Part shown: positions 3,001 to 64,000 of the stretch, piece by piece
How positions within the stretch are numbered: the first letter of the stretch is position 1
Layout of the letters: every line of letters begins with the position of its first letter
Origin: Verrucomicrobiota bacterium
Lineage (GTDB): Bacteria; Verrucomicrobiota; Kiritimatiellia; CAIKKV01; CAITUY01
NCBI GenBank assembly: GCA_011391785.1
Contig: JAABPW010000228.1
Coordinates: 9,946 to 73,945 of the forward strand
DNA length: 64,000 nucleotides
Direction: 5' to 3'
The notes under the pieces: model-generated
What the model saw: only the letters and a program-made list of their open reading frames with translations
The model's database searches: none
What the model was told of the DNA's origin: nothing
Position numbers and translations under genes: made by a program

Positions 3001-3926
3001 GGCGAGATGGCGGTGGGATGGTTGTGCGTCTCAACCTTCATGAGGATATCGACCTGCTCCGGCAGACTGCCGTAGTGGTTGGATCCGCCGGGATGAACTT
3101 CAAACCAGTTTCCGGGAAAACCTTCCATTACCGAGGAATTGTCCTCATAGGCCATCAACGTGCCCTGCGGGTGCAGGGTGTGGGTGTTGCGAATCATGTC
3201 AAAAAGGCTCAGGGACTGGCGTTCGCCGTCCAGAATCCAATCGGCCTTGAAGATCTTGTGCCGGCAGTGCTCGGAGTTGACCTGCCCGAACATGACCAGC
3301 TCGACGTCAGTCGGGTTGCGCCGGAGCTTGGTGTAGACATCAAACAGGTATTGGATTTCCTCGTCCGAAAGCGCCAGGCCCAGCGTGATGTTCGCCTTTT
3401 TCAAGGCGGGAAGCCCCCCCTCGAGGATGTCGACGCACACGAGCGGGGCGGGGGGAATATGTTGGAAGATATCGGAGAGATCGGTGTAAACCCCCTCGGT
3501 CATCCGGTCGTGAATGACATGGAGCGCGGGCTTCAGCTGCGACAGGGTGGCGGATGAGTCATCGGCCAGCCGGACCTGGAAAAGCGATCCGCGTTCAACG
3601 CGCTGCACGGCGCCGAGTCCGCAGTTGTGGAAGATGTCGGTGGCCTTGGATGCCCAGGGTGACAAGGTTCCCTTGCGGGGCGTGACAAAAACTCCGTCAT
3701 GGGAGTGGGGCTGAATCCGGTTGTCGGTATCAAGCAGGGCGGCAACCCGCGGCCACAGTTCGGCGGGAAAATTCGTCGCGGTTTCAACGATGAAAACGGC
3801 ATGGACCTCGAGGGCGTCGATTTTGCATCCCGGCATTTCCCTGGAAATCTGGTGTTTCAGGGCGGAGAGGCGGAAGGCCGAGTGAACGGGCCCGCCTTTG
3901 AAGATGTGGAGTGTGTGGGTGGTCAT
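39..3926 (-). CDS. purL: phosphoribosylformylglycinamidine (FGAM) synthase, single-chain large form
   Basis: 1295-aa ORF with the PurL N-terminal region, duplicated AIR-synthase-like domains and a C-terminal class-I glutamine amidotransferase; stop TAA at 39-41. Confidence 0.95.
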
Positions 3927-37159: not shown

Positions 37160-37206
37160 CGTGTCTCCCTTGTCGTTAAAGATATGAAGTGCCTTCCGGG
37201 GTGCGA

Positions 37207-37980
37207 TTAATGTTTCAGGCGTGCGGTAATGCGGGCTGCCGCATCGGTAGCCATGCGGCCGAAGTGTTTGAATTTCTCCTTCCGGATTCTCTCCAGCGGA
37301 CCTGTGATCACGATGGCGGCGACGAGCCGGTCGTCGTCGGCGAAGACCGGTGCGGCAACACAATGGGATCCCTCGATCTCCTCGGCCAGATCGAGGGTGT
37401 ATCCTTCCTTGCGTGCCAGCTCCAACTCCTTTTCCAGCTTGGCGGGGGTGGTGATGGTCCGGGCCGTGAACCGTTCGAAGGACTGCGCCGCGAGTTTGCG
37501 TTTCCGTTCCGCTTCGTCGCCAAAGGCGAGGAAAACCTTGCCGGGAGCGTTGCAGTACAAGGGGATTCGCACCCCGATATCATAGATGATGCGGATGGGC
37601 TGGCGTGATGGCTGGAAGTAGACCAGCACGGCCTCGTTGCCGCTGGGGATGAGGAGTCCGACGCTTTCCCCGCTCTCGTGGCGGAGCGCCTTGATTTCAG
37701 GGGTGGCCTCGTCCACGAGGTTCTTGCCGGCGGCATTCGGGACGGCGAGTTCCAGGAGCTTGGTGCCGAGGGAATAGGTTTTGGATTCTGTTTTATGCGT
37801 GTAACCGCGGGAGGATAGGTCCCCCAGGATCCGGAAGATCATGTTCTTGCTGATGCCGAGCAAACGGTGGATGTCGGTCAGGGTGAGCCCTGCGGGGTGC
37901 TGGCTGAGCAGCTCGAGTATGGCCAGGCATCGATCCGTACTGGGGGCAAGTGCTTTGTTGTTTATCGGAATACGCGTCAT
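37207..37980 (-). CDS. IclR-family transcriptional regulator
   Basis: 257 aa; N-terminal wHTH (LAILELLSQHPAGLTLTDIHRLLGISKNMIFRIL) and a C-terminal IclR effector domain; 47-bp gap to the downstream giant gene. Confidence 0.88.
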   Translation of the reverse strand: MTRIPINNKALAPSTDRCLAILELLSQHPAGLTLTDIHRLLGISKNMIFRILGDLSSRGYTHKTESKTYSLGTKLLELAVPNAAGKNLVDEATPEIKALRHESGESVGLLIPSGNEAVLVYFQPSRQPIRIIYDIGVRIPLYCNAPGKVFLAFGDEAERKRKLAAQSFERFTARTITTPAKLEKELELARKEGYTLDLAEEIEGSHCVAAPVFADDDRLVAAIVITGPLERIRKEKFKHFGRMATDAAARITARLKH

Positions 37981-38061: not shown

Positions 38062-38085
38062 TCCCCCCTTTCGGGTGGTGCTAAT
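38062..38085 (+). promoter_or_regulatory. conserved 24-nt upstream motif, copy A (TCCCCCCTTTCGGGTGGTGCTAAT)
   Basis: 23/24 nt identical to 48376-48399; lies in the IclR/propeller-A divergent intergenic region, ~28 nt upstream of the 38113 ATG. Confidence 0.6.
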
Positions 38086-38112
38086 CCCCGGAGGGATGAA
38101 CTAGAATGTGGC

Positions 38113-48375: not shown

Positions 48376-48399
48376 GGTCGTAATTTCCCCCCTTTCGGG
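48376..48399 (+). promoter_or_regulatory. conserved 24-nt upstream motif, copy B (TCCCCCCTTTCGGGTGGTGATAAT) with extended -10-like TGATAATAT
   Basis: 23/24 nt identical to 38062-38085; ~80 nt upstream of the AKR gene that heads the propeller/FGE/CCP gene string. Confidence 0.6.
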
Positions 48400-48480
48400 T
48401 GGTGATAATATCTGGCTGGATTCACTATAGTTCGGTTCACAAAAGGTTCCCGATATGGGGCCGTGGGGAGATACCGGACT

Positions 48481-49485
48481 ATGCGTACTAGGAAACTCGG
48501 GAATTCAGGGATTGAAGCTTCTGTTGTCGGGCTTGGCGCCTGGGTGCTGGGCGGGGGGGCGGTGTGGGGGGCTGATACGGATGACAACGAGTCCATCGCC
48601 ACGATCAAATCGGCCCTGGATGCGGGCATCACTCTCATTGACACGGCACCCGCCTACGGGTTCGGGCGCAGCGAGGAGGTTGTGGGCAAGGCGATCCGCG
48701 GCCGGCGCGGCCAGGTTGTCCTGGCCACCAAGTGCGGGCTGTGGTGGGATGACCAGCGCGGATCCTACTTCTGTGAGTTCGACGGGCGCCCGATCCAACG
48801 ATCCCTGCGTCCCGACACGATTGTCATCGAACTCGAAAACAGCCTGCGGCGACTGGGAACCGATTACATCGACCTTTACCAGAGCCACTGGCCAGCGGTG
48901 GCGCCCGACAAGACTCCGATTGCCGACACCATGGCGTGCCTGATGAAGCTGAAGGAGCAGGGGAAGATCCGCGCCATCGGGGTCTCCAATGTGTCCATCC
49001 CGGAGCTGGGTGAGAATCTCGCCAGCGGGGATGTGGCCTCGAACCAGTTCCGCTACAGCATGCTGCACCGGGCCCCGGAGCAGGATATGCTCCCGGCCTG
49101 CCGCCAGAACAATTTGGCCACGCTGACCTACATGAGCCTCGAGCAGGGACTGCTGACCGGCAAGGTAGGCATGGACCGGTCCTTCTCGTCCGGCGATTTC
49201 CGCAGTAACGAAGCCTGGAATCCCTGGTACAAGATCGAGAACCGCCAGCGCGTGCTGGATTTTCTGGCCGGGTTCAAGCCCTTGACTGAAAAGTACGCCT
49301 GCACCACCGCCCAGCTGGTTATCGCCTGGACCCTGGCTCAGCCCGGCGTGACCCACACTCTGGCCGGCGCCCGCCGCGAGGCGCAGGCCCGGGAGAATGC
49401 CCGCGGCGGCGATATCCTGATCGAAATCGATGATTTGAAGGCCATGTGCAAGGCCGTGGAGGTGCTCGGTGAACCGATACGCTAA
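48481..49485 (+). CDS. aldo/keto reductase
   Basis: ~334 aa from MRTRKLGNSGIEAS; AKR TIM-barrel motifs (GITLIDTAPAYG, IDLYQSHWP). Confidence 0.88.
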   Translation: MRTRKLGNSGIEASVVGLGAWVLGGGAVWGADTDDNESIATIKSALDAGITLIDTAPAYGFGRSEEVVGKAIRGRRGQVVLATKCGLWWDDQRGSYFCEFDGRPIQRSLRPDTIVIELENSLRRLGTDYIDLYQSHWPAVAPDKTPIADTMACLMKLKEQGKIRAIGVSNVSIPELGENLASGDVASNQFRYSMLHRAPEQDMLPACRQNNLATLTYMSLEQGLLTGKVGMDRSFSSGDFRSNEAWNPWYKIENRQRVLDFLAGFKPLTEKYACTTAQLVIAWTLAQPGVTHTLAGARREAQARENARGGDILIEIDDLKAMCKAVEVLGEPIR

Positions 49486-52399
49486 GCGATATGCGACGAT
49501 GATCATCGGCGGGGCGTTGTGGCTGGCAGGGCAGACCGCCCCGGCCTTTGAGACAAACGCCCTGGCTCGCGCCATTGAGGACCTGTCGGCCTCGTTCCCG
49601 GCGCACTACACGCAGGGAGCTGATTTCCTGAAGCAATTGGCGGCGGTCCGCACCGAGGCTGAGTTCGCGGCCCTGGAGCGGAAGGCCCTGTTGGCCAATC
49701 CGCTTCTCGATTTCGACCAGGTGCTGGTGGTCAGGCGCGGCGCCGATAAGCTCGCCCTTCCCCAGAATTGGCAGGGAAACTGCGCCCTTCCTCCCAAAGG
49801 CTATCGCAACGACATCGCTGTCCTCTCCCTCTCCAACGGGGTTGCCAGGGCGCTCTTCACGCCGACCAACGGGGTGTTCGTCGGGGATGTGGATCTGGAT
49901 TTCGATGCCGACAAGCTCCTGTTCTCGATGCCTGATGACGCTGGCAACTGGCATGTCTGGGAACTGGTCGCGAACGGGGCCGGCCTTAAAAAGGTCACTC
50001 CCGATGAGCCGATGATTGACCAGTACGACGCCTGTTACCTGCCGGATGGCGGGATTATTTTCAACTCCACCGCCGCCGTTGCCGGGGTGCCCTGTGTCGG
50101 GGGCGGGACGGTTGTGGCCAACCTTTTCCGCATGTCGGCCGACCGGAGCACGATCCGGCGCCTATGCTTCGACCAGGAGCACAATTGGTGCCCCACGGTG
50201 TTGAATGACGGGCGTATCCTGTACACCCGCTGGGAATATACCGACACGCCGCATTACTTCACCCGCCTGCTGTTCTCGATGAATCCGGACGGAACGACCC
50301 AATCGGCCTACTATGGTAGCAATTCCTATTGGCCCAATTCCATCTTCTATGCGCGGCCCATTCCCGGTGTAGCGGGCAAGGTGGTTGGGATTGTCTCCGG
50401 TCACCACGGCGTGACGCGGATGGGGGATCTCATCCTGTTTGATCCGGGCTTCGGCCGCAACGAGTCCGCCGGGGTCGTCCAGCGTATTCCCGGGTTCGGG
50501 AAAAAGGTTGAACCGGTAATCAAGGATCAGCTGGTGGATGATGTCTGGCCGAAGTTCCTGCATCCCTATCCGCTGAGCGCGAAATATTTCCTGGTTTCCT
50601 GCAAGCCCGGACCCCATGAAAAGTGGGGGATATACCTGGTGGACGTTTTCGACAATAGGGTGCGGCTCTACGACGAGCCGGGCATGGCCATCCTGGAGCC
50701 CATCCCGTTCCGGAAGACCGTCAGGCCCCCGGTGATTCCCGACCGTGTCAATCTGGATGAAAAGGAAGCCACGGTCTATCTCAACGATGTCTATACGGGC
50801 CCCGGCCTCGCGGGTGTGCCTCGCGGGACAGTGACAAAACTTCGCGTCTACACCTATCATTTCGCCTACCCGGGAATGGGGGGGCATATCAACGTGGGGA
50901 TCGATGGCCCCTGGGATGTGCGCCGTTTACTGGGAACCGTGCCGGTCAATGCCGATGGCTCAGCATCGTTCAAGGTGCCTGCCAACATGCCCCTGGCCCT
51001 GCAGCCGCTGGACAAGGACGGGCAGGCCCTCCAGATCATGCGGAGCTGGTTCACCGCCATGCCCGGTGAGAGCGTGACCTGCGCGGGGTGTCATGAGAAG
51101 CAGAATACCACCCCGCCATCGCGACCGAACAAGGCGGTTCTGCAGAAACCGGTAACGATCACCCCGTGGTACGGTCCTTTCCGCGGTTTCAGCTTCACCC
51201 GCGAGGTGCAGCCGGTCCTGGACCGGAACTGCACCGGGTGTCATTCCCAATTCGCCGCGAACCAGCCCAAGATCGGCGGCTTTACCCGTTCCTATTTCGC
51301 CCTGCATCCCTTTGTGCGGCGGCCTGGCCCCGAGAGCGATTACCATATGCCGAAGCCCTACGAGTATCATGCAAGCACCAGTGAGCTGGTCCAGATGCTG
51401 CGCCAGGGGCATCATGGTGTCCGGCTCGACAAGGAGGACTGGGACCGCCTCACGACCTGGATCGACCTCAACGTCCCCGATCATGGCACATGGGGCGAGC
51501 ACCACTCCATCCCGGCAAACATGGAGACGTTGCGCCGGGACATGCTGAAGAAGTATGCGCAGATGGACGATAACCCGGAGGTGATCCCGGAGACGCCTGC
51601 CAGAAGCACTAAATTTGTCCCGCCCGCCGCGACGTCTCAGGAAAAACCGGCCGTCAAGGACTGGTCCGTTGATGCCCGCTGGGGCCAGGGACTGGCCCCT
51701 GAAATGAAATTCGATCTCGGGGAGGGGAAGGTTATGGAGCTGGTCCTGATCCCGGCGAAGAAGCCCTTCTATATGGGGCGTTTCGAGGTCGTGAATGCGC
51801 AGTACCGGCTGTTCGATCCGGATCATGACAGCGGTTATGTCCAGATCTTCAACAAGGACCGAACGGCCCGGGGGGTTCCGGTTAATGGGGCGGCCCAGCC
51901 TGTCGTGCGGGTCACCTGGCAGGAAGCCTCGGCTTTCTGTGCCTGGCTGTCGAAGAAAACGGGGAACAAATTCAAGCTGCCCGACGAAGATCAATGGGAA
52001 TGGGCCTGCCGCGCCGGAAAGGCGACCCCGATGTGGTACGGGGAGACCAACGCGGATTTTGCAACGTTCGCCAATCTGGCGGATACCAACCTGGCAGAAT
52101 TAACCCCCGGGAATTCCCCGAAATGGATTCCGGCGATCCGGACGGTCGATGACGGGGTGGCGGCAACGGCCGGGGTGGGGCGCTATCTGCCGAATCCGTG
52201 GGGACTTTACGACATGCACGGGAATGCCGCGGAATGGACCTCGTCCGTGACCCGCGAGGGGGAGCGGATCTGTCGGGGCGGCTCCTTCTATGACCGTCCG
52301 AAACGGGCCACCGCCAGTTCGTACCGCGGCTATCTTCCTTTCCAGCCGGTTTTTGATGTCGGGTTCAGGGTAATCATGGAACTTCCCGATCGTAAATGA
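49469..52399 (+). CDS. secreted TolB-like beta-propeller / CxxCH (PSCyt1-like) protein fused to a C-terminal FGE-sulfatase (formylglycine-generating enzyme family) domain, paralog C
   Basis: 976 aa; GTG start with GGAGG RBS, overlapping the AKR stop; propeller blocks paralogous to A/B; TCAGCHEKQ and NCTGCHSQ; C-terminal ~270 aa is FGE-like (RVTWQEASAFCAWL...WEWACRAG...MHGNAAEWTSS...RGGSF). Confidence 0.8.
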   Translation: MNRYAKRYATMIIGGALWLAGQTAPAFETNALARAIEDLSASFPAHYTQGADFLKQLAAVRTEAEFAALERKALLANPLLDFDQVLVVRRGADKLALPQNWQGNCALPPKGYRNDIAVLSLSNGVARALFTPTNGVFVGDVDLDFDADKLLFSMPDDAGNWHVWELVANGAGLKKVTPDEPMIDQYDACYLPDGGIIFNSTAAVAGVPCVGGGTVVANLFRMSADRSTIRRLCFDQEHNWCPTVLNDGRILYTRWEYTDTPHYFTRLLFSMNPDGTTQSAYYGSNSYWPNSIFYARPIPGVAGKVVGIVSGHHGVTRMGDLILFDPGFGRNESAGVVQRIPGFGKKVEPVIKDQLVDDVWPKFLHPYPLSAKYFLVSCKPGPHEKWGIYLVDVFDNRVRLYDEPGMAILEPIPFRKTVRPPVIPDRVNLDEKEATVYLNDVYTGPGLAGVPRGTVTKLRVYTYHFAYPGMGGHINVGIDGPWDVRRLLGTVPVNADGSASFKVPANMPLALQPLDKDGQALQIMRSWFTAMPGESVTCAGCHEKQNTTPPSRPNKAVLQKPVTITPWYGPFRGFSFTREVQPVLDRNCTGCHSQFAANQPKIGGFTRSYFALHPFVRRPGPESDYHMPKPYEYHASTSELVQMLRQGHHGVRLDKEDWDRLTTWIDLNVPDHGTWGEHHSIPANMETLRRDMLKKYAQMDDNPEVIPETPARSTKFVPPAATSQEKPAVKDWSVDARWGQGLAPEMKFDLGEGKVMELVLIPAKKPFYMGRFEVVNAQYRLFDPDHDSGYVQIFNKDRTARGVPVNGAAQPVVRVTWQEASAFCAWLSKKTGNKFKLPDEDQWEWACRAGKATPMWYGETNADFATFANLADTNLAELTPGNSPKWIPAIRTVDDGVAATAGVGRYLPNPWGLYDMHGNAAEWTSSVTREGERICRGGSFYDRPKRATASSYRGYLPFQPVFDVGFRVIMELPDRK

Positions 52400-52455
52400 T
52401 ACTCTCAACCCCGTTGCCCTGGGAGGGGGGCTGTCTGCATCGAGAAGGGGGAGGC

Positions 52456-54792
52456 ATGAGTATCAGGTTTGATCGTCTCTGTTCCATATTCGTGCTGATA
52501 TCGGCTGTTCCCGTGTTTGCCGCGGACGTGTCGCCGTCGCTGCCTGAGGTGGCGAAGCAATCGGTCCTGTTCGTCACGCGCCACCAATACCAGCGCGACC
52601 ACCATAACACGCACGATTTCTTTCCCGTGGCGGAGCATGAATTCAACCTGGGTGAATTCACGCCCGGCAGCGCCATGAAGATTATCGAGCTGCCGTCGCG
52701 GAAGATCACCACCCTCCTGGAAACGAAGACGGGCGTCATCCGCGACCCGGACCTGAGTTATGATGCCCGGAAAATTGTCTTCTCCATGCGCCGCGACACT
52801 CAGGACAGTTATCACATCTACGAGATCAATGTCGATGGGACGGGCTTGAGGCAACTGACGTCGCTGAAGGATGCCGATGATCTCGACCCGGTCATCCTGC
52901 CGGATGGCCACATCCTGTTCAGCTCTACCCGGGAACCGAAGTACTGCCTCTGCAACCGGCATATCATGGGCAACCTGTACCGCATGGAGCCGGATGGCGC
53001 CAACATCATCCAGATCAGCAAGAACACGCTGTTCGACAACAAGCCCTCCGTGATGCCGGATGGACGGATCCTCTATACGCGCTGGGAATATGTCGACCGC
53101 GAGCAGCTGAGCGCCCAGGGCCTGTGGGTCTGCAATCCCGACGGCACGCGTCACCAGTTGATCTGGGGGAACAACACGCAAAGTCCGGGCGGCATCCAGG
53201 ATGGCCGCATCATTCCTGGCACCCGTCAGCAGATCGTGTGCACCTTCTCTCCCTGCCACGACAGGAGCTGGGGGGCGATTGCCCTTATCAACCGATCCCT
53301 CGGCATGGACGGTCCGAAGCCCGTGGTGAAGATCTGGCCCGCCTCCGCCCGCCGCCTGATTGCGGAGGTCGGTTCCTGTGATGCCTTTGCCGTATGTAAT
53401 CCCAAGTACGAGGATCCCTATCCCCTGACGTATCCCGGGACCGGAATCGCGGGCCGCTATTTCCTCAGCATCCGAACCATCGGCAAGGGCGAAAAAACCG
53501 CGATCGTCCTGCTTGATGCCGAAGGCGAGGATGTTGTCCTGCACGAGGAGGTGGGGCCGCTGGGTTGCTTTGACCCCATGCCGGTGAGGGCAAGGGAAAA
53601 GCCGCCCGTTGTCCCGGCGCAACGCAAATACGATATTGGATCGGAAGGGGCCTTGTATATTTCCGACGTCTATAACGGAACCCACATGCAGGGGATCGCC
53701 AGGGGCGATGCCAAGTTCCTGCGAATTGTCGAAACGCCGGAAAAACGGTTTTACGTGCTACGGCATACCTGGACCGCCCCGGCCATCAACTGGAATGAAT
53801 TCAACACCAAGAGGATCATCGGCACCGTGCCGGTGGAGGAGGATGGCTCTGCCTATTTCACCGTTCCGTCCGAGAAATTCGTCTACTTCCAGTTGCTCGA
53901 CAAGGATGGCATGATGATCCAGTCCATGCGCAGCGGCACCTATGTCCAGCCGGGAGAAACGCAAGGGTGCAACGGCTGCCACGAGAACCGCCTGTCCACC
54001 CCGCTCACGCGCCCTGACAAGTCGGCGGCCTTGAGGAAGAAGCCCGCGGTCCCCTCAGGATGGTACGGGAGCAGGGAGTCCTTCAATTTCCTGTCCGCGA
54101 TCCAACCCATCCTGGACCAGCACTGCCTGAAGTGTCATGACTACGGCGGGCAGGGGGCCAGGAAAGTTGTGCTTGCGGGAGATAAGAGCGTCCCTTTCAA
54201 TGTGTCCTACATGGAACTGCACCGCAAAAAATATCTCGGCAGCATCGGGGCCGGCCCGGTTCCCATTTTCCAGCCGAAAACATGGGGATCCCATGCCAGT
54301 AAACTCATCGACATCCTGCGGAAGGGGCACAAGGAGGTGCGCCTGTCGCGGGAAGAACTCGACAAGATCATCACCTGGGTTGATCTCAATGCCCCTTATT
54401 ACCCCTCCTTTGCCTGTTCCTTCCCGGACAATGTGACGGGGCGCTGTCCGTTGAACGACGAGGAGTTGACGCGGCTCGAACAGATGACCGGGCGACCGGA
54501 CCTGATCGCCAGCCTCAATGAATGGGCCTGGAAAGCGCCTGAACCATTCCTGAATTTCGACCGGCCGGCCCTGAGCCCGATCATGCAGGCCGTTCCTGCG
54601 AAGGACAAGGAAACCGCCTTGAAGATCATTCAGACTGGCGCATTGCGTCTAAGGGACAAGCCTCGCGCCGACATGCCCGGGTTCAAGTTGTCGGGCCTCG
54701 ATGAATGGCGTGAAGAGAAGTATCAGAAGCGCCTTGGCCGTGAAGCGGTCAACCGGGAGGCCGTGACCAAGGGTAAAAAGGTCTATGATTGA
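52456..54792 (+). CDS. secreted TolB-like beta-propeller protein with two CxxCH motifs (PSCyt1-like), paralog B
   Basis: ~778 aa from MSIRFDRLCSIFVLISAVPVFAADV (RBS GGGGAGG); closest paralog of 38113-40584. Confidence 0.8.
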   Translation: MSIRFDRLCSIFVLISAVPVFAADVSPSLPEVAKQSVLFVTRHQYQRDHHNTHDFFPVAEHEFNLGEFTPGSAMKIIELPSRKITTLLETKTGVIRDPDLSYDARKIVFSMRRDTQDSYHIYEINVDGTGLRQLTSLKDADDLDPVILPDGHILFSSTREPKYCLCNRHIMGNLYRMEPDGANIIQISKNTLFDNKPSVMPDGRILYTRWEYVDREQLSAQGLWVCNPDGTRHQLIWGNNTQSPGGIQDGRIIPGTRQQIVCTFSPCHDRSWGAIALINRSLGMDGPKPVVKIWPASARRLIAEVGSCDAFAVCNPKYEDPYPLTYPGTGIAGRYFLSIRTIGKGEKTAIVLLDAEGEDVVLHEEVGPLGCFDPMPVRAREKPPVVPAQRKYDIGSEGALYISDVYNGTHMQGIARGDAKFLRIVETPEKRFYVLRHTWTAPAINWNEFNTKRIIGTVPVEEDGSAYFTVPSEKFVYFQLLDKDGMMIQSMRSGTYVQPGETQGCNGCHENRLSTPLTRPDKSAALRKKPAVPSGWYGSRESFNFLSAIQPILDQHCLKCHDYGGQGARKVVLAGDKSVPFNVSYMELHRKKYLGSIGAGPVPIFQPKTWGSHASKLIDILRKGHKEVRLSREELDKIITWVDLNAPYYPSFACSFPDNVTGRCPLNDEELTRLEQMTGRPDLIASLNEWAWKAPEPFLNFDRPALSPIMQAVPAKDKETALKIIQTGALRLRDKPRADMPGFKLSGLDEWREEKYQKRLGREAVNREAVTKGKKVYD

Positions 54793-54910
54793 GCCACGGC
54801 GCCCTATTGAATAACCACCCGAAAGTGGGGGTTCCAATATTCTTATTTCGGGTTACCTTTAAGCAAATGACCGAGATGGGGTGTCTACTATGGAGAAGGG
54901 GATAATTTTA

Positions 54911-56770
54911 ATGAAAAACTATCTGCGGTTTACGATGTCGGGTGTTGGGGCTGTCCTGGTGTGTGTCCTTGTGTCCCAGGCCCGGGCGGGATGGTTCAGT
55001 GCAAAAAGCGAAGCCCGTTATTATTCCCCTTGCGCCGTTGTGGCATCCGACGATGGTAACGATGTGTTCGTGGCCGAATATTCCGCCAACCAAGTGGTCC
55101 AGGCTGATGTTGTCAAGGGAGGCCTGAAGCGCACCATTGCCACAAAACTACCCCCGTCCGGTCTTGCCCTGGATTCCAGGTCCGGTGTCCTGTTTGTCAC
55201 ACTGGAGTCAAACGAGGGACAGGTTGTCCTGATCGACACCCGCACGGGAAAGCTGGAAGCCCGGATTGCCGTTGGCCATACCCCGCTTGCGCCGGCGTTG
55301 AGTCCCGACGGGAAGACCCTGGCCGTCTGCAACCGGTTCAATAACAATGTCAGCCTGATTGACGTCCCTTCCCGCAAGGAATCGGGGCGGGTTGCCGTTT
55401 CCCGGGAGCCCGTGGCGGCGGCCTTCTCGCCCGATGGTCGTCAGCTCCTGATCGCCAGCCATTTGCCGTCCATGCCCGCCAATGGCGACTATAGCGCTTC
55501 GGTCGTTACGGTGATTGATCCTGCCACGCGGCTTGTGGTGACCAACCTGACGCTTCCCAACGGGTCCACCGGGCTCCGGGGCCTGTGCGTTTCGCCCGAT
55601 GGCCGGTATGCCTATGTGACCCATACGCTTGGCCGGTATCAGTTGCCGACCACCCAGCTCGAGCGGGGGTGGATGAACACCAGCGCCATCAGCATTATTG
55701 ACCTGCAGGGCGTGAAGATGCTGTCCACCGTGCTGCTGGATGACGTTGACCTGGGGGCGGCTAATCCTTGGGGGGTGGCCTGTACGACCAATGGGGCGCT
55801 GTTGTGTGTGGCTCAGGCGGGCACGCACGAGGTCAGTGTGATTGACCGCAATGCCCTCCATGAACGCCTTGGCCGTGTTGCCAAGGGCGAGAAAGTCGGA
55901 GTGTCCCTGTCGCTGGAGGATGTCCCGAATGACCTGAGTTTCCTGGTCGGGATCCGGCAACGCGTCAAGCTGCCCGGGAACGGGCCCCGCGGGTTATGCC
56001 TGGCCGGTGACCTCGCGGTCGCGGGGATGTACTTCAGCGACAATCTGGCGGTTGTGTCGCTGACGACCACCCCGGTGGTGGCCCGCGAGGTGTCGCTTGG
56101 GCCCAAGACACCGCTTTCCGAGGAACGCAAGGGAGAGATGTATTTCAATGACGCCGCGTTCTGTTTCCAGGAATGGCAGAGCTGCGCGAGCTGTCACCCC
56201 GACGGAAGGGCAGATGCCCTGAACTGGGACCTGCTCAATGACGGGATTGGAAACCCGAAGAATACCAAGAACATGCTGCTGAGCGTTCAAACTCCGCCCT
56301 CGATGAGCCTCGCGGTGCGTGCGGATGCGGCCATGGGGGTTCGGGCAGGACTCAAGTTCATCCAGTTCTCCATGCGGCCTGAGGAGGATGCCCTGGCGAT
56401 TGATGCGTACCTGACCAAGATGAAGCCGGTTCCCAGCCCCTATCTCGAGAAAGGCAAGCTTAGCAAGGCCGCCCGCCGTGGCGAAAAGGTGTTCAGGAAG
56501 GCCAACTGCGCCACCTGTCATTCCGGCTCACTCTACACCGACCTCCAGACCCATGAGATGGGTATGGGGCAGGGGATGGACAAGGATAAGCCTTTTGATA
56601 CACCCACCCTTGTGGAGTGCTGGCGCACAGCGCCGTTTCTTCATGACGGGCGGGCCTCCACGATGAAGGAGCTGTTCCAGGAATTTAATAAGGATGACGT
56701 TCACGGTGACACCAGCAAGTTGTCGCCGCGGGAGCTGGATGACCTGGTGGAGTTTGTATTGTCGTTGTGA
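54911..56770 (+). CDS. secreted YVTN-family beta-propeller fused to a di-heme cytochrome c peroxidase (CCP/MauG-family) domain
   Basis: ~619 aa from MKNYLRF (RBS GAAGGGGA); N-terminal YVTN/PQQ-like repeats (SPDGKTLAVCNRFNNNVSLID, SPDGRQLLIASH, SPDGRYAYVTH); C-terminal CASCHPDG and CATCHSG with the CCP signature FDTPTLVECWRTAPFLHDGRASTMKE. Confidence 0.8.
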   Translation: MKNYLRFTMSGVGAVLVCVLVSQARAGWFSAKSEARYYSPCAVVASDDGNDVFVAEYSANQVVQADVVKGGLKRTIATKLPPSGLALDSRSGVLFVTLESNEGQVVLIDTRTGKLEARIAVGHTPLAPALSPDGKTLAVCNRFNNNVSLIDVPSRKESGRVAVSREPVAAAFSPDGRQLLIASHLPSMPANGDYSASVVTVIDPATRLVVTNLTLPNGSTGLRGLCVSPDGRYAYVTHTLGRYQLPTTQLERGWMNTSAISIIDLQGVKMLSTVLLDDVDLGAANPWGVACTTNGALLCVAQAGTHEVSVIDRNALHERLGRVAKGEKVGVSLSLEDVPNDLSFLVGIRQRVKLPGNGPRGLCLAGDLAVAGMYFSDNLAVVSLTTTPVVAREVSLGPKTPLSEERKGEMYFNDAAFCFQEWQSCASCHPDGRADALNWDLLNDGIGNPKNTKNMLLSVQTPPSMSLAVRADAAMGVRAGLKFIQFSMRPEEDALAIDAYLTKMKPVPSPYLEKGKLSKAARRGEKVFRKANCATCHSGSLYTDLQTHEMGMGQGMDKDKPFDTPTLVECWRTAPFLHDGRASTMKELFQEFNKDDVHGDTSKLSPRELDDLVEFVLSL

Positions 56771-57873: not shown

Positions 57874-57962
57874 TCCGGCTACTAAATAGTGGCGATTCCC
57901 GCACGACGAGCAAGATTCACCACCCGCTTCGCTAGAGGCGCGGAGACGCAGAGAAGAAAATG

Positions 57963-58009
57963 TTGCGGGAATTATGCCCGCGGAAATACCGTGGGCATAA
58001 TTCCCGCAA
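57963..58009. repeat. 17-bp perfect inverted repeat with 13-nt spacer (TTGCGGGAATTATGCCC ... GGGCATAATTCCCGCAA)
   Basis: read directly; lies at the GC-content boundary downstream of the RidA-like gene; no T-run follows. Confidence 0.7.
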
Positions 58010-58054
58010 CCCCTCTGGTGGAGAATTCCCAAGAGGAAAAGGATCCTAACGTCC

Positions 58055-58078
58055 CCCTCTCCCGCGTGCGGGAGAGGG
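58055..58078. terminator. GC-rich hairpin (CCCTCTCCCGC-gt-GCGGGAGAGGG), possible terminator for the minus-strand gene 58234-58821
   Basis: ~10-bp stem; on the minus strand it is followed by the T-rich GGATCCTTTTCCTCTT. Confidence 0.4.
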
Positions 58079-58233
58079 CTGGGGTGAGGGGTTCTGATCT
58101 CCGTCCTCTGTTATTCGTCACATTCGGGCTGTTTTTCAGTGCGTTTCTTTCCTGAGGCCGAACTGCCGACATGTCTTTATGGCTCTCCAAGAAGATGGAT
58201 ATATGACTATCAACTCACCTTCGGAGTAAAGCG

Positions 58234-58821
58234 TTACAAGCCACTCTCGAGGGGGCCAGCGGGCTCCGAAGCGGGTGCGTTTGTTGGTTCGACGATCTCT
58301 ATGGTGAAGACTTCCGTTGTGGCGGGTGGGTTCCAGCCGCGAGTAGACGCCCTGCGAGCCTGGCATTTGCGCGCCTCTTGGAAAATGTAGGAAATACCCC
58401 GTCTATGAAAATAACAGGAGGCACTTGTTTGATATTCCGGATGCTCTTGGCGGAAGTCAGCGATTCGCAGAATCAGCTGGTATTCATCTTCGCCATTAGG
58501 CCATTCGAGCCCGCGATGATCTCCAAATTCCGTCCAGCCGCTGTGTTCCAGAATTCTGCTGTTAATTATGTTGTTCAGACGATCAACGGCTCCGGGTAAA
58601 TCATTCTTTCGCTGGAGCAATTCCACAACAGATTGGAACTCGTCCAGCGTGTGATTGTTCTCGGCTCGGTTTTCGTATAACGAAGCTTCCAGGCATTGCT
58701 CCAGATATTGTAGGCGTTGGCGATCTGCAGGTTGCCCATGGGTCCACCCTATGAGGATGCCAAGACCAATGACTATGACTTGCAGAGCAATAAGGAGTAT
58801 GATTTTTCCATTTATCTTCAT
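58234..58821 (-). CDS. hypothetical N-terminally anchored protein
   Basis: 195 aa; MKINGKIILLIALQVIVIGLGILIGW signal anchor; RBS AAGGAA; immediately downstream of promoter cassette 1. Confidence 0.6.
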   Translation of the reverse strand: MKINGKIILLIALQVIVIGLGILIGWTHGQPADRQRLQYLEQCLEASLYENRAENNHTLDEFQSVVELLQRKNDLPGAVDRLNNIINSRILEHSGWTEFGDHRGLEWPNGEDEYQLILRIADFRQEHPEYQTSASCYFHRRGISYIFQEARKCQARRASTRGWNPPATTEVFTIEIVEPTNAPASEPAGPLESGL

Positions 58822-58837
58822 CCGTTCCTTACCTGGT

Positions 58838-58990
58838 TCAAATCAGTTCCCATTCATCATCTCCTTGCTTTCCTTATGTTCAACCCCTCATTCCGGCACC
58901 GTTTTGTCAGGCAGGTGCCTGAATCGCGGAAATGTAGGGGTGGGGGGACAAAGGGTCAAGGGCGATCTGAAGAAGTTCTTGATGGACGCT
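58838..58990 (-). promoter_or_regulatory. promoter-operator cassette copy 1: -35 TTGACC / 17 bp / -10 TACATT, then the 16-bp palindrome TCAGGCA-NN-TGCCTGA and a conserved ATGATGAATGGGAACTGA leader
   Basis: minus-strand reading of 58954-58959 (-35), 58931-58936 (-10), 58907-58922 (palindrome); whole cassette repeated at 63034-63160. Confidence 0.7.
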
Positions 58991-59592
58991 TAATTCGCGC
59001 CAGTATCAATAGCCTGCGACGCTTCGCTGGGTGTATTCATTCTCTTAAGGGCGCGAAGCGACGCCTTCATTTCAGTAAGTGTGTGGAATCCCGCCTCCTG
59101 TTCCCTGCGCCAGCGGTAGGCGTCATCCGCTTCAACCCGGGCAATGGTCCACTCAATCGCTTCAATCTGAAGCTCGGGGAGCGTCTTCTGCTGGTGTGAT
59201 TGCCACCAGGCAGCGATGTTGTCGCGGGTCAGGTAGGAGGGGCCGGACTTGTTGTAGGAGTACCATTCCACCTGCCAGACGATGATATTGAGGCACGCAT
59301 CGCCAACAGTTGTCCGGGTAGAGGTGTCGGCCTGGAAGCAGGGGCAGGCGGGGCGACGGTCTGGCAGGCTCGCGATTAGGGCGGGGAATACCGCCGTTCC
59401 CATGCTGATGAGCTTGTCATAAGCGAGCACCGCCGCCGGTGGATTGAACTGGCTGGTGGTATCCGCGAGCAGGTTGACCAGGTCCTGCGGCCTGTCCGGG
59501 CGAAAATCACTGAACGTCCGTGTCTGGCAGGAGGCGGTAAACATCCCCGCTATAGTCATCACAATCGCAATTGCCTGGTTTATTTTCATCAT
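58990..59592 (-). CDS. hypothetical lipoprotein
   Basis: ~200 aa from MMKINQAIAIVMTIAGMFTASC (lipobox); the ORF extends upstream but its N-terminus is non-protein-like. Confidence 0.6.
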   Translation of the reverse strand: MMKINQAIAIVMTIAGMFTASCQTRTFSDFRPDRPQDLVNLLADTTSQFNPPAAVLAYDKLISMGTAVFPALIASLPDRRPACPCFQADTSTRTTVGDACLNIIVWQVEWYSYNKSGPSYLTRDNIAAWWQSHQQKTLPELQIEAIEWTIARVEADDAYRWRREQEAGFHTLTEMKASLRALKRMNTPSEASQAIDTGAN

Positions 59593-59665
59593 TCTTATGG
59601 AGTGCCGACTCAAGCGACCACTCTCCAAATTTCCCGATGCCCTCTGGCATCTATATTCCTGGGCT

Positions 59666-60493
59666 TTATTCCTGATCACCCTTGGGCTTGATTCCGGCCC
59701 CTGCGATGATTTTCCTGATCTCATCTTTTGAGTCGAGGTTCTCCATTTTGAATCGGAAAGTTTTCACGATGCAGGAGACAAAATCCATCACGTCATTCGT
59801 GCAGCCTTTTCGGGTGCGGATATGCATTCCCACCGTCTGGGTTCCCGCCCTGTTCTGGATCGAGACATGTGATTTGGTGAAGTCATCAGGAGTCTCTCCT
59901 ACTCGAACCAGTCCGCGTGTTTCAGACGTGTGATAGGTGTGGACGCGCCGCATGCCTCGGCCTACTGAGAAGCCCTTTTCTTGAAGGAGTATTGAATTCA
60001 CAACGAAAACGGACCAATCCTCAAGACAGGCCTCCCATAATGATTCCGGGAGCATCTGCTCAGCGCGTATTTCCATGTCCAGGAATGTCGTGCCTGGACA
60101 CGGTGCGAGCGCACGGTAGGGATGGCTGGCGGGCAGCTTGGCTAACGCCTGTGATAAAATATTATTTGTCCATTCAGGCGCTGAAGGGTTGAACGGAATC
60201 AAAAAAAAGAAGCTTAGCCGGTCAGTGTTGCCCAGAACCACGCAACCTTCTCCGGATGACTTCAGTTGAACCGCGTTGGTCGAGGGGATGATGAATTCGG
60301 CATAACCAACATCGCAGGTCACGCCATGTTTGGCCTGGATGGGTGACAAGTCGAGTTCCGTCGCAACGACCCCGGCGCGATATCGCACTTCCGGATGATG
60401 GTACAGCTTATGTAACACATACCACCGCGAGCCCACACGCCATCCCGCGAGTGCGATAGCTAGCACAACAATGCTGATTATCCATTTCTTCAT
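59666..60493 (-). CDS. hypothetical exported protein (N-terminal signal anchor)
   Basis: 275 aa; MKKWIISIVVLAIALAG. Confidence 0.6.
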   Translation of the reverse strand: MKKWIISIVVLAIALAGWRVGSRWYVLHKLYHHPEVRYRAGVVATELDLSPIQAKHGVTCDVGYAEFIIPSTNAVQLKSSGEGCVVLGNTDRLSFFFLIPFNPSAPEWTNNILSQALAKLPASHPYRALAPCPGTTFLDMEIRAEQMLPESLWEACLEDWSVFVVNSILLQEKGFSVGRGMRRVHTYHTSETRGLVRVGETPDDFTKSHVSIQNRAGTQTVGMHIRTRKGCTNDVMDFVSCIVKTFRFKMENLDSKDEIRKIIAGAGIKPKGDQE

Positions 60494-60535
60494 CAGATTT
60501 CCGGTCCAAATGTCAGGACATCTCCGCTCCCTGCA

Positions 60536-60898
60536 TCATCCTGGGTTATAGCTCTTCGAAAGGTGGATTGAATATCCATCCGGGGTATTGAATATCACCT
60601 CGTTCTCTTTCCACTCAACAGCGCACTGCTTCATCCAGCCTGCCTTGTCATTGGTATATTGAATTGAGAATTCCGCGGGATAGTCCCATCCGCCACGATC
60701 AATATAAACCCTTTGCCTTTCGGCATGGAGGAAATCAACAATAGGGCTAAATGTCTGAACTCTTAAGGACAAATTCCCTTCAGGGGCTTTGTAGACATGA
60801 AGATCCTTCCATTCCCCCGCCGTTGAAAGAATTATCATGGCTGTGGGGAGCAGCAGCGTGATGAGGATAAGAAGTGTTGCTGCTGTTGATTTCTTCAT
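60536..60898 (-). CDS. hypothetical small secreted protein
   Basis: 120 aa; signal peptide MKKSTAATLLILITLLLPTA; abuts the upstream SPase-like gene. Confidence 0.6.
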   Translation of the reverse strand: MKKSTAATLLILITLLLPTAMIILSTAGEWKDLHVYKAPEGNLSLRVQTFSPIVDFLHAERQRVYIDRGGWDYPAEFSIQYTNDKAGWMKQCAVEWKENEVIFNTPDGYSIHLSKSYNPG

Positions 60899-60899
60899 T

Positions 60900-62009
60900 T
60901 CATTTTCCTTCCAGGGCGCTGATCCTGGTAAACGGCCAGTAGATCCGGGTCACCCTGCCGAGGATGTTCCGCTCGGGTACGGCGCCCCAGAATCGGCTGT
61001 CAAAGCTGTTCTGGGTGTTGTCGCCAAGAACCAGGTATTCATGGGGGCCAAGGGTGATTTCGTCGGTGGGTTTTGAAAGGCGTCCGCCGACCGGTCCAGC
61101 GAGCTGGAATCCAGCGTAGCCGCCGGACGAGGTCGATATGGTCTTGAATATCGGTGGTTCCATCACCTCGTGGCCGTTCACGATCAGGAAGGGGGGCGCG
61201 ATACGGATCCGTTCCCCGGGAAGCCCGGCGATGCGCTTGATATAGAAAGTGCCGGGAGGGAGGGTAGGGATGCCCTCGGTGCGGAAGACCACGATGTCAC
61301 CCCGCTTTGGCTTGCTGAAAAGATACGAGATCCGCTCGATGAACACGTGGTCACCGGCGGTTACGATGCCTGCCCACAGCGTATCGCCAGCTGACACTTG
61401 CTCGCCGGGCTGCTTGAGCGGTGGCGCGAAGCGCGGTAGCTCATACTGCCGGGAACCGACACGACATGTCAGCCAGGATGGGTCAACTCGGGAAAGAGAC
61501 ATCGCGGAAAACGTGCCGCTGGACTCCGCCTTGACCTCCAGATAACGCTGCCCCGACAGGAGCCACTGGGAAAAGCCAGGCTTGTCACACGAATCCGCAG
61601 GCATGCTTCGCGCATGGGTCCCGAAGATGGTCGGCTGCATTGTGCCGGTTGGCACCTTGAAGGGATGGATGAATTGCCGTGCCAGGAAGCTTGAGCCGCT
61701 TCTGAGAACTATGGCTATAACAATGAGGGTTAGCCAGCCGGGGATCCCGATCCGCTGGACGGGGCGGTATGATTGCTTGAGCATCACGAGCCACAAGACA
61801 ACGCCGGCGGGAATAATGGCCAGTCCGAGAATGAAGGGGGCCATGCCCGGAGTGGCAAGGAGCGCCACGCCGACAACGCCACAGGCAAACAGGCTAATAT
61901 ACCACTTCAGGCCAGCTGCACGCTGGCCCGACAGGAAATGGGCGGCGCCGGCGAGTAGCATCCCAAGCACTACGCCAACCCACTCGCGATATGGTTGTTT
62001 GTTGTTCAT
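60900..62009 (-). CDS. signal peptidase I (S26) homolog with extended polytopic N-terminus and Thr at the nucleophile position
   Basis: 369 aa; boxes B-E recognisable (VPTGTMQPT in place of PSGSMxPT, KRGDIVVF, YIKRIAGLPGE, GDNTQNSFDSRFWG); ~110-aa N-terminal region with 3-4 TM helices. Confidence 0.75.
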   Translation of the reverse strand: MNNKQPYREWVGVVLGMLLAGAAHFLSGQRAAGLKWYISLFACGVVGVALLATPGMAPFILGLAIIPAGVVLWLVMLKQSYRPVQRIGIPGWLTLIVIAIVLRSGSSFLARQFIHPFKVPTGTMQPTIFGTHARSMPADSCDKPGFSQWLLSGQRYLEVKAESSGTFSAMSLSRVDPSWLTCRVGSRQYELPRFAPPLKQPGEQVSAGDTLWAGIVTAGDHVFIERISYLFSKPKRGDIVVFRTEGIPTLPPGTFYIKRIAGLPGERIRIAPPFLIVNGHEVMEPPIFKTISTSSGGYAGFQLAGPVGGRLSKPTDEITLGPHEYLVLGDNTQNSFDSRFWGAVPERNILGRVTRIYWPFTRISALEGK

Positions 62010-62024
62010 CCCTGCATGCGTTTC

Positions 62025-63026
62025 CTAGTAGCAGTCGCTTGCCCATGTGACGTTTCCACGGGTGTCGATCATGAAGTAGATGCAGCCTACGTCTCCAAAC
62101 ATCATTTCATAGAGCTCCCCGTCTGACTCTTCGTCGCCGTCCGATATGCTCCGCGGGAGTGCTTCCATGTTCGTAAACGGCCATTTTTCTTTAGGCTGAA
62201 CACTGCTGAGCGCGCAAATGAACTCCTGGCCCTTTTTGCGGGGATCGCCCTGGATTACATAGGTTTCCCGGCCGATCTTCGTGCTTTGACTCTTTGAGAG
62301 GAGGTAGGATTCATAGTGCCCTTCCTTTTCAAAGATCTCGGTGCTGTCCGGATATTCGTTACAGCGGTGGAGCTCGCCCGCGAGTTCGGGAACAGCAAAA
62401 CCGGGTTTCGGGCAGTCCTTTTGGGTCATCGGTTGCCGGAGCGAGGCGGAAGACCACTCGATATGCACATCGCCCGGGTCGCCTGCATAACTCTCGGAGT
62501 CCTTGAAGAACACCAGCATGATGTCGCCAGGCAACTTGTCCGACACAATATCCTTCGAGTCCAGGAAACAGAACTGGGCTACAAATGTATAGGGCCTGCC
62601 TGTCTTTTCGGTGGGCCATTGCAAGGATTTCTCCCTGTGCGGCACACCCCCTGTTTTCGTCAGGTAAGGCTTCTCCGGCGCCCCATGACTCCAGATAATC
62701 GTGTCAACCGGCACACGCCGTCCCAGATCGTGTTTTTTCGCGACACGCTCCCGGACGAGTTCCACCTGGCAAAGGTCGGAGGGGCTGCTGATGATCGTGC
62801 CGCTGGCCTTCCAGAGATCGAGAGGATCACCCTTCGGGGTAGTCGAGTACTGGTGCGGACCGTCCTTCTTCTCGAAAGTCTCGATAGGGAAGATCGCGCG
62901 CCACTTGGCGAAGTCTACCGTCGGATGGTGCTTCGCCGCAGGTCCCTTGATGGAAGAACTGTCGGGCTCCTGTTTCGTGCACGAAGCAAGGACAGTTGCA
63001 AGAAGTATTACAGGTACTATCTTTTT
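62025..63026 (-). CDS. DUF1963/YwqG-like lipoprotein
   Basis: ~333 aa from MKKIVPVILLATVLASC (lipobox); C-terminal blocks TFVAQFCFLD...GDIMLVFF...GELYEMMFGDVGCIYFMID resemble the YwqG family; directly downstream of promoter cassette 2. Confidence 0.6.
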   Translation of the reverse strand, partial: KKIVPVILLATVLASCTKQEPDSSSIKGPAAKHHPTVDFAKWRAIFPIETFEKKDGPHQYSTTPKGDPLDLWKASGTIISSPSDLCQVELVRERVAKKHDLGRRVPVDTIIWSHGAPEKPYLTKTGGVPHREKSLQWPTEKTGRPYTFVAQFCFLDSKDIVSDKLPGDIMLVFFKDSESYAGDPGDVHIEWSSASLRQPMTQKDCPKPGFAVPELAGELHRCNEYPDSTEIFEKEGHYESYLLSKSQSTKIGRETYVIQGDPRKKGQEFICALSSVQPKEKWPFTNMEALPRSISDGDEESDGELYEMMFGDVGCIYFMIDTRGNVTWASDCY

Positions 63027-63033
63027 CATATTC

Positions 63034-63160
63034 AGATCAGTTCCCATTCATCATTCCGATGCCGTATTGTCAGGCAGGTGCCTGAATTGCGGAAATGTAG
63101 GGGCGGGGGAGTGAACGGTCAAGGGCGATCTGGATAAGTCCTTGGTGACGGAGGGTTTGC
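63034..63160 (-). promoter_or_regulatory. promoter-operator cassette copy 2 (-35 TTGACC 63117-63122, -10 TACATT 63094-63099, palindrome TCAGGCAGGTGCCTGA 63070-63085, leader ATGATGAATGGGAACTGA)
   Basis: near-identical to copy 1 except for a 44-nt indel between the palindrome and the leader; read directly from the sequence. Confidence 0.7.
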
Positions 63161-63808
63161 CTGTTTTGAAGTTATTCCGTTGAGGAGGTCGCATGCCGTC
63201 TTTTTGCGTTTCGCGTTGTTTTCCAGTGCGGTGCGGTAGTCTTTCAGGCGCTCCTCCAGTATGCGAATCTGGCTCTCATTGACTGGCGTCAGCTTGCTTT
63301 GTTTATCAAGGGTGGCTTGAAGCTTGTCGATGACTCTGGCAAGCCGGTTGCATTCCTTGGTCAGCGACTTGATCAATACCTCAAGCTCGCTTTGCTGCGG
63401 ATGGACCTCTTTTCCCAGGGGACGCAGGCTGCATCCGGCATCACCAAGGTCGACGAGCTTGCTCTTCACTATATTGAAACGATATCTCGTGTCTGGGCGG
63501 TACAGGCGGGCCGGGTCGCCTGACGCAAGGTAGCCATCATGGTGGAGCCTGAAATACTGGCCGGCGTAATTGGTTGGTGAGAGCACAAAGAAGAGGAACG
63601 CTCCGGCGCCTGAACCGGTAGCCTTGTCGCCTGTAAATAGCGGGGCATGTTCCCCCGTTGGCAGTTCGCGCCACAATTCATAACCAGCGAGCGAGGCGGT
63701 GACCTCGATCGTTTCAGGGTGCGGCGTGGGGTCCTGCCGGGATGCCTTGTTCATCTGGCAGGCGGAGGTTGTGGCAATGGCAAGAATCAATACGGCAAGT
63801 GTTCTCAT
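63119..63808 (-). CDS. hypothetical lipoprotein with C-terminal coiled coil
   Basis: 229 aa; MRTLAVLILAIATTSAC lipobox; its stop codon lies inside the -35 of cassette copy 2. Confidence 0.6.
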   Translation of the reverse strand: MRTLAVLILAIATTSACQMNKASRQDPTPHPETIEVTASLAGYELWRELPTGEHAPLFTGDKATGSGAGAFLFFVLSPTNYAGQYFRLHHDGYLASGDPARLYRPDTRYRFNIVKSKLVDLGDAGCSLRPLGKEVHPQQSELEVLIKSLTKECNRLARVIDKLQATLDKQSKLTPVNESQIRILEERLKDYRTALENNAKRKKTACDLLNGITSKQANPPSPRTYPDRP

Positions 63809-63881: not shown

Positions 63882-64000
63882 AGGGTTCAAACCTGACCCA
63901 GTCCACGTTGTTTACCGCTCCGCCGGGGAAGACCAGGTACAGGTTGTGAATGCCGGCGGCATGATCGATGCCGCATTCGGACTGGCCGGGAAGGAGCTGG
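63882..64000 (-). CDS. 3' end of an unidentified minus-strand CDS running off the window
   Basis: protein-like reading frame ...LLPGQSECGIDHAAGIHNLYLVFPGGAVNNVDWVRFEP* ending at TGA; too short for the ORF track. Confidence 0.3.

Follow-up and report, generated by a model that had tools for sequence, protein, structure and literature searches.

A duplicated promoter-like module in an exported-protein island of an uncultured bacterium close to Kiritimatiellia

Introduction

The stretch of DNA considered here (the window, 64 kb in all) belongs to contig JAABPW010000228.1 of the assembly GCA_011391785.1, from an uncultured bacterium of the Planctomycetota–Verrucomicrobiota–Chlamydiota (PVC) group that is probably closest to Kiritimatiellia. 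Near one end of the window, two non-coding stretches of ~120–155 bp, 4.2 kb apart and both on the minus strand, are copies of one promoter-like module, which we call the cassette. Each copy carries a pair of promoter-like hexamers, a perfect palindrome and a short leader, and each stands ahead of a different gene for an exported protein. We describe the locus and the alignment of the two copies, and then weigh what the cassette may do.

The locus and its two cassettes

The cassettes lie in an array that runs from ~63.9 kb to 58.2 kb with every gene on the minus strand. The array forms a lower-GC island, as proposed in a first-pass annotation made from the sequence: GC is 0.53–0.56 across 58–64 kb and ~0.60 elsewhere in the window. 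The cassettes and their parts are as follows (window coordinates; mini-ORF, mini open reading frame).

58834–58988, minus strand: cassette copy 1, ~155 nt including a 31-nt extra segment, delimited by alignment with copy 2
63031–63150, minus strand: cassette copy 2, ~120 nt, delimited by alignment with copy 1
58954–58959, minus strand: -35-like hexamer TTGACC of copy 1 (motif and promoter scans, alignment)
58931–58936, minus strand: -10-like hexamer TACATT of copy 1, after a 17-nt spacer
63117–63122, minus strand: -35-like hexamer TTGACC of copy 2, containing the stop codon TGA of the upstream gene (63119–63121)
63094–63099, minus strand: -10-like hexamer TACATT of copy 2, after a 17-nt spacer
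58907–58922, no strand assigned: dyad TCAGGCA-CC-TGCCTGA of copy 1, starting 8 nt past the -10, at about +3 to +18 of the predicted transcript
63070–63085, no strand assigned: dyad TCAGGCA-CC-TGCCTGA of copy 2, starting 8 nt past the -10
58857–58887, minus strand: 31-nt segment present in copy 1 only, between CGGAATGA and TGAATGGG
58843–58860, minus strand: leader ATGATGAATGGGAACTGA of copy 1, which reads as the five-codon mini-ORF M-M-N-G-N-stop and ends 21 nt ahead of the real start codon
63037–63054, minus strand: leader ATGATGAATGGGAACTGA of copy 2 with the same mini-ORF, which stops 7 nt short of the DUF1963 start codon

Aligned with each other, the copies share a gapless core of 97 nt (58888–58984 against 63051–63147) at 85% identity, recovered by a repeat search and by blastn (E ~1e-25), and a second block of 24 nt (58837–58860 against 63031–63054) at 96% identity (blastn). 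The duplication claimed in the first-pass annotation is therefore real. At the 5' edges, similarity reaches ~58988 and ~63150 through one further indel-containing turn, and the longest identical run is 21 nt. The order common to both copies is CAGATCGCCC-TTGACC-(17 nt)-TACATT-TCCGCRAT-TCAGGCA-CC-TGCCTGA-CAAWACGG...CGGAATGA, then TGAATGGGAACTGATYTGAA. The two hexamers, the 17-bp spacer and the perfect 16-bp palindrome past the -10 had all been pointed out before, and the coordinates bear them out in both copies. The insertion in copy 1, on the other hand, is 31 nt long and not 44 nt; its placement is ambiguous by 4 nt because ATGA stands on both flanks. A tandem duplication of the leader and the Shine-Dalgarno region was considered as the source of this insert and rejected as not significant, with 262 of 2000 shuffles scoring equally.

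The genes around the cassettes, and the likely end of the array, are listed here in the order in which they would be transcribed.

63119–63808, minus strand: 229-aa probable lipoprotein with a coiled-coil C-terminal half (P0100), upstream of copy 2; its last 10 codons are inside the cassette
62025–63029, minus strand: 334-aa DUF1963 lipoprotein (P0001), the first gene past copy 2; lipobox MKKIVPVILLATVLASC
60900–62009, minus strand: 369-aa signal-peptidase-I-like membrane protein (P0099); box B PTGTMQPT
60536–60898, minus strand: 120-aa protein with an N-terminal hydrophobic segment (P0102)
59666–60493, minus strand: 275-aa protein with an N-terminal hydrophobic segment (P0101)
58990–59592, minus strand: 200-aa probable lipoprotein (MMKINQAIAIVMTIAGMFTASC), the last gene ahead of copy 1; stop codon TAA at 58990–58992
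58234–58821, minus strand: 195-aa membrane-anchored protein (MKINGKIILLIALQVIVIGLGILIGW...), the only gene past copy 1; hydrophobic anchor without a lipobox cysteine
57960–58012, minus strand: long perfect hairpin (TTGCGGGAATTATGCCC ... GGGCATAATTCCCGCAA) with a T-rich tail, the likely terminator closing the array

All seven island proteins open with a hydrophobic N-terminal segment. Five of them are recorded as singleton clusters, all from one NCBI contig, and two short Logan contigs span the middle of the island, which is also present in SRR29699982 and SRR29699983. Several details of the first-pass annotation change at this level. The DUF1963 gene, for which a start at 63047/63026 had been given, starts at 63029, which reproduces the database protein P0001 exactly. 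The description of the downstream genes as lipoprotein genes suits the one past copy 2, which encodes a lipobox, but not the one past copy 1. Similarly, the upstream gene was said to stop inside each cassette; it does so at copy 2, where the TGA falls within the -35, whereas at copy 1 the TAA falls at the repeat's outer boundary.

No terminator-like site was found between either cassette and its upstream gene. If the cassettes are promoters, they are thus internal promoters of a co-directional array and not the isolated heads of transcription units that had been proposed. An all-against-all BLASTP of the seven island proteins returned nothing better than E = 0.29. The flanking genes are therefore non-homologous, and only the non-coding module is duplicated. 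The same comparison bears on a segmental duplication, which paralogous flanking genes would have indicated, and no paralogy was found.

Conservation within the cassettes

The 15 mismatches of the core are unevenly spread. The two hexamers and the dyad, 28 positions in all, are free of them (hypergeometric P = 0.0037), and six lie within the 17-nt spacer (P = 0.023), whose length is the same in both copies. That is, the hexamers and the dyad are invariant and the spacer is fixed in length while free in sequence, a pattern that fits a sigma-70-type promoter under selection. Such promoters have hexamers near TTGACA and TATAAT that are 16–18 nt apart, and both copies have this arrangement. A generic promoter scan picks both sites, and TTGACC-17-TACATT matches 9 of 12 consensus positions in each copy.

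Within the window these motifs are scarce. The pattern TTGAC-N18-TANNNT occurs on the two strands of the 64 kb only at the cassette sites (0.47 expected; at least two in 8 of 100 shuffles), and the exact dyad occurs at just two places, again the two cassettes. When up to two mismatches are allowed, the dyad has three matches in the 64 kb against 0.38 expected, a number that none of 100 shuffles reaches.

Duplicated sequences need not be functional, and the pair could be a neutral relic. In that case, an intergenic stretch of ~120 nt would have been copied by local duplication or illegitimate recombination without having decayed so far, and at most the ancestral copy would be functional. The setting suits such an origin: the cassette has just two copies, separated by 4.2 kb and in the same orientation, and the gene content of the surrounding island varies from relative to relative. 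Doublets are also the commonest class of duplicated promoters and can arise by random recombination (PMC3488235). At 15% divergence, however, the mismatches avoid the 28 motif positions (P ~0.004) and cluster in the spacer, and the 24-nt leader block is still 96% identical across the 31-nt indel. We consider a relic unlikely.

The dyad as a possible operator or hairpin

The dyad is a perfect 7-2-7 palindrome that is invariant in both copies and overlaps the predicted start region, which is where a repressor operator may sit. From this position, a repressor–operator reading is plausible. As RNA, the same sequence is predicted to fold into a 6-bp stem with a 4-nt loop (-9.4 kcal/mol; z = -3.4 and -4.1), and the predicted hairpin lies within 2–3 nt of the predicted 5' end in both transcripts. 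The innermost (seventh) pair of the dyad is unable to form in RNA, where it would leave a loop of just 2 nt. The DNA is thus symmetrical beyond the requirements of an RNA hairpin, a mild argument for recognition at the DNA level. Overall, an operator for a dimeric repressor and a 5'-terminal, message-stabilizing hairpin would fit the dyad equally simply. GGCAC...TGAC in the dyad could suggest sigma-54, but by eye its GG/GC spacing is wrong, and this reading was rejected.

The hairpin also bears on an explanation in which the cassettes act at the RNA level. One long message would come from further upstream, each cassette would be an intercistronic hairpin (a processing or stability site) joined to a translation leader, and the hexamers would be incidental. 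The missing terminators, the stability of the dyad hairpin and the conservation of leader and mini-ORF up to the start-codon region agree with this explanation. In addition, RNAalifold proposes a C-rich/G-rich helix enclosing the hairpin, in which three pairs are changed on both sides, although two sequences give no real covariation power. Folds of the whole cassette, however, do not consistently beat shuffles (z = -1.6 and -0.85 on the minus strand, -3.75 and -0.22 on the plus strand). Rfam gave no match at gathering thresholds, and at E up to 1 a lone spurious microRNA match (E = 0.37) falls outside the cassettes. An element of this kind also leaves the invariance of both hexamers at exactly 17-nt spacing unexplained, and we regard it as an improbable account of the cassettes.

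Searches for further copies

The exact pattern of -10 plus dyad gave two matches among 185,579 species-representative genomes and 12 in JGI metagenomes, all unrelated to the cassette and including gyrB coding sequence. In viral contigs, the dyad with its flanks had no match and the leader had five, all within coding sequence. No cassette match was returned by blastn against plasmids and phages, and nhmmer (--max), searching the window and every fetched locus with a profile, detected no diverged third copy. The possibility that the cassette is the terminus of a multi-copy mobile element, which the first-pass annotation had raised itself, accordingly finds no support within the 64 kb or in the exact-pattern scans.

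Mobility could take several forms: a miniature inverted-repeat transposable element (MITE), an insertion-sequence end, attL/attR-type repeats around the 4.1-kb five-gene segment, or an integron-like cassette boundary. Direct repeats do bracket a discrete gene block in a lower-GC region here. Moreover, as with insertions, the 3' end of the upstream gene is replaced by copy 2 sequence, and a 10-nt inverted repeat (90%) lies close to both ends of this copy. This terminal inverted repeat is absent from copy 1, however, and an inverted repeat in one copy only, with two copies in 64 kb, does not match a MITE or an insertion-sequence end. The features of an integron attC site are likewise missing: the island encodes no integrase domain, the dyad has only 7 bp, and the folds (computed with RNA energy parameters) are inconsistent against shuffles. 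More generally, domain, NCBIfam and defence-system scans of the island proteins detected no recombinase, integrase, transposase or defence-system domain, the latter two scans returning the signal-peptidase match only. Finally, repeats with just 85% identity, in which no identical run exceeds 21 nt, are unlike fresh attachment sites. A mobile or recombination element is, in our judgement, very improbable.

A proposed promoter and leader module

We favour, with somewhat better than even confidence, the reading that both stretches are copies of one compact module, a sigma-70-type promoter with its 5' leader, that was duplicated within the island. Promoter activity, the start site and the roles of dyad and leader are here read from the sequence. 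Under this reading, the module would have been duplicated inside an accessory island of exported proteins, and the housekeeping RNA polymerase would use TTGACC-17-TACATT at each copy. Transcription would start ~7 nt past the -10, at the A/G at 58924–58925 and 63087–63088. Copy 2 would drive the genes for the DUF1963 lipoprotein, the signal-peptidase-like protein and three small exported proteins. Copy 1 would serve the final gene, for the 195-aa protein, with transcription ending at the terminator near 57.97 kb. Both copies would act as internal promoters, boosting or uncoupling parts of the co-directional array.

The invariant dyad, at ~+3 to +18, would provide the same control element for both units. 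Most likely, the dyad would be the target of a dimeric repressor whose gene would lie elsewhere in the genome and whose binding would prevent initiation or promoter escape. A 5'-terminal hairpin that protects the mRNA could take this role instead, or in addition. As for the leader, we infer that its mini-ORF might aid ribosome loading on messages with a weak or no Shine-Dalgarno sequence. The promoter–operator claim of the first-pass annotation thus keeps a plausible promoter, moderately supported by a substitution pattern that fits a selected sigma-70-type promoter.

Several points weigh against the promoter and leader module. The substitution-pattern test is post hoc and weak, with two sequences only. 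Matching 9 of 12 consensus positions is not rare (five such sites against 3.7 expected in a 6.5-kb scan), and this score uses a general consensus, the promoter rules of the host phylum not being experimentally established. Domain scans detected no helix-turn-helix or other DNA-binding domain among the seven visible island proteins, so the island offers no candidate for a cognate dimeric regulator, and the sole transcription factor annotated among the scanned open reading frames (ORFs) is of the IclR type and 21 kb away. Nor is there a regulon to be defined from further sites, since none for the dyad or the cassette was found in the 64 kb or, by exact pattern, in public collections. Lastly, neither cassette nor dyad was found upstream of five DUF1963 orthologues (L035, L015, L021, L022 and L016; 62–76% protein identity), where resemblance to the window is confined to a few bases around the start codon.

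Comparison with known systems

Duplicated promoters have been catalogued on a large scale as 'putative mobile promoters' (Matus-Garcia, Nijveen & van Passel, Nucleic Acids Res 2012; PMC3488235), with more than 4000 families in 1043 genomes, mostly doublets. The same study suggests that families of two or three copies arise by recombination rather than transposition. Its definition asks for sequences of >50 nt with at least 80% identity, within ~150 nt upstream of non-homologous genes, the neighbouring upstream genes also being non-homologous and no known insertion sequence or riboswitch accounting for the similarity. The cassettes share 97 nt without gaps at 85% identity, and their cores lie 22–118 nt (copy 2; start at 63029) and 67–163 nt (copy 1; start at 58821) from start codons. 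The coding sequences on either side are unrelated, upstream and downstream alike (BLASTP best E = 0.29, as above). As for insertion sequences and riboswitches, Rfam and the plasmid and phage collections gave no match. Judged by its sequence, the pair is thus a putative two-member family under this operational definition. Like families in figures 2 and 3 of that study, it is conserved nearly to the start codon and broken by a variable insert. Its 85% identity, on the other hand, differs from that of the catalogued doublets (~92% on average). Both cassettes also sit in one co-directional array, 4.2 kb apart, in an uncultured PVC-group host, unlike dispersed mobile promoters.

Sigma-70 promoters with a repressor operator overlapping +1 are well known, for example lac O1 and LexA-type boxes. 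The cassettes resemble this arrangement in having hexamers 17 nt apart followed by a perfect dyad over the first ~20 transcribed bases. They differ in that scans of the island proteins gave no cognate regulator and that repressor binding and start site are predictions; we know of no operator consensus that the dyad matches. Equally familiar are 5'-terminal stem-loops that stabilize bacterial mRNAs, such as that of the ompA 5' untranslated region in E. coli. Here too, a stable hairpin is predicted, purely by folding, near the 5' end of both transcripts, but the symmetry of the cassette DNA includes an innermost pair that is unusable in RNA.

Promoter re-use is common in bacteria, and the duplication is real but fairly ordinary; with thousands of such families already catalogued, the general picture is unchanged. 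If both copies are active, they would neatly illustrate, on a small scale, how regulation is rewired when a promoter is copied, and would do so in a phylum whose promoters and regulators have hardly been studied. They would also provide two natural variants of one promoter with a defined candidate operator, from which promoter and regulator studies, or the building of expression tools for Kiritimatiellota/Verrucomicrobiota-like bacteria, could begin.

Relatives of the island genes

A parallel comes from a Kiritimatiellae genome bin (L023; NCBI GCA_028718445.1, JAQULY010000002.1), which has a 377-nt direct repeat at 1069–1445 and 3041–3416 with 92.6% identity. The repeat ends just ahead of two unrelated starts, those of an uncalled lipoprotein ORF (ATG at 1461) and of the orthologous signal-peptidase-like gene (3433). 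Within it lies CTTGACC-17-TATCCT, from which a 5' leader of ~220 nt would follow, and the repeat has neither an Rfam match nor nucleotide homology to the window cassette. By its sequence, this locus independently shows promoters of the TTGACC type in the lineage and the copying of upstream modules before different exported-protein genes.

The signal-peptidase-like gene has many relatives at 65–71%, with different neighbours at every locus, so the island is a variable array and not a conserved operon. In the family to which it belongs (P0223–P0341), the nucleophile serine of box B (consensus SGSMxPT) is mostly replaced: among ~120 listed matches the position holds Ala in 61, Ser in 16 and Thr in five. 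The window protein has Thr at this position (PTGTMQPT) and keeps the catalytic-lysine box YIKRIAGLPGE, and a ~90-residue insert separates box B from the rest of the domain. With the nucleophile Ser replaced (Thr here, Ala in most relatives), peptidase activity is doubtful, and the family may consist of pseudo-peptidases.

In Bacillus subtilis, the tapA-sipW-tasA operon pairs a dedicated type I signal peptidase with its substrates. The island is similar in placing a signal-peptidase-I homologue among genes for signal-peptide and lipobox proteins under a shared, here predicted, promoter, and dissimilar in its replaced nucleophile serine, a trait of most relatives as well.

A bolder extension of the promoter and leader module would be that this PVC lineage copies a portable promoter–operator–leader module within fast-changing exported-protein arrays built around the Ser-replaced signal-peptidase-like protein, with the Kiritimatiellae repeat as an independent parallel. 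We rate this as a long shot. If it holds, newly acquired surface or secreted proteins would repeatedly be brought under one regulatory circuit by module copying, perhaps along with a pseudo-peptidase for their handling.

The closest relatives of the signal-peptidase-like gene (L025–L029, e.g. L025:5357–6679) lie in long same-strand arrays of small hypothetical exported proteins. The arrays also include a gene for a type II secretion pseudopilin and, ~1.3 kb upstream, one for a 440-aa reverse transcriptase (RVT_1).

Two of the DUF1963 orthologues have upstream features of their own. At L022, TTGACT-16-TACCGT places the -10 exactly 64 nt from the start codon, as in copy 2; the spacing is not accompanied by homology in sequence (identity in register is 30%, and the null is 27 +/- 4.5%). 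At L015, upstream of the orthologue with 73% identity, the region 41–97 has two ACAGGCA-N3-TGCCTGT palindromes (48–62 and 76–90) nested in CTGGGAG...CTCCCAG. Their half-site is like that of the window dyad (CAGGCA/TGCCTG), with different spacing and context, and they could be chance or a related binding motif.

Edges of the island and the rest of the window

At the upstream edge (63882–64000, minus strand), a gene running off the end of the window terminates in ...HNLYLVFPGGAVNNVDWVRFEP, which by eye we take to be like the C-terminus of a CBM6-like carbohydrate-binding module. If so, the island begins directly after a glycoside-hydrolase-type gene. At the other edge (58040–58090, minus strand), a perfect palindrome, CCCTCTCCCGC-AC-GCGGGAGAGGG, stands between the island and a convergent chorismatase-like gene and looks like a repetitive extragenic hairpin.

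Outside the island the window is ordinary chromosome, with purL, genes for 3-dehydroquinate synthase, EF-G, primase and isopropylmalate dehydrogenase, and a tRNA. The EF-G is 94–97% identical to genome-bin proteins and ~75% identical to those of Kiritimatiellia. The window also encodes several paralogous proteins with a hydrazine synthase alpha (HZS-alpha) domain. Four are large paralogues with the 'hydrazine synthase alpha middle domain' (PF18582), at 38113–40584, 49469–52399, 52396–54792 and 33317–37363, which add PD40/beta-propeller, HEAT or FGE-sulfatase parts. A beta-propeller/cytochrome c protein (54881–56770) adjoins them, and the family is unusually concentrated in these 20 kb.

A second duplicated upstream element (TCCCCCCTTTCGGGTGGTGMTAAT...), of 42 nt and 81% identity, occurs on the plus strand at 38062–38103 and 48386–48427. 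Its copies precede an HZS-alpha-domain gene (38113) and a gene pair for an aldo-keto-reductase and an HZS-alpha-FGE-sulfatase protein (48463), and an IclR-type regulator is encoded divergently at 37207–37980. Judging from these positions, paralogous operons may share the element as promoter or operator.

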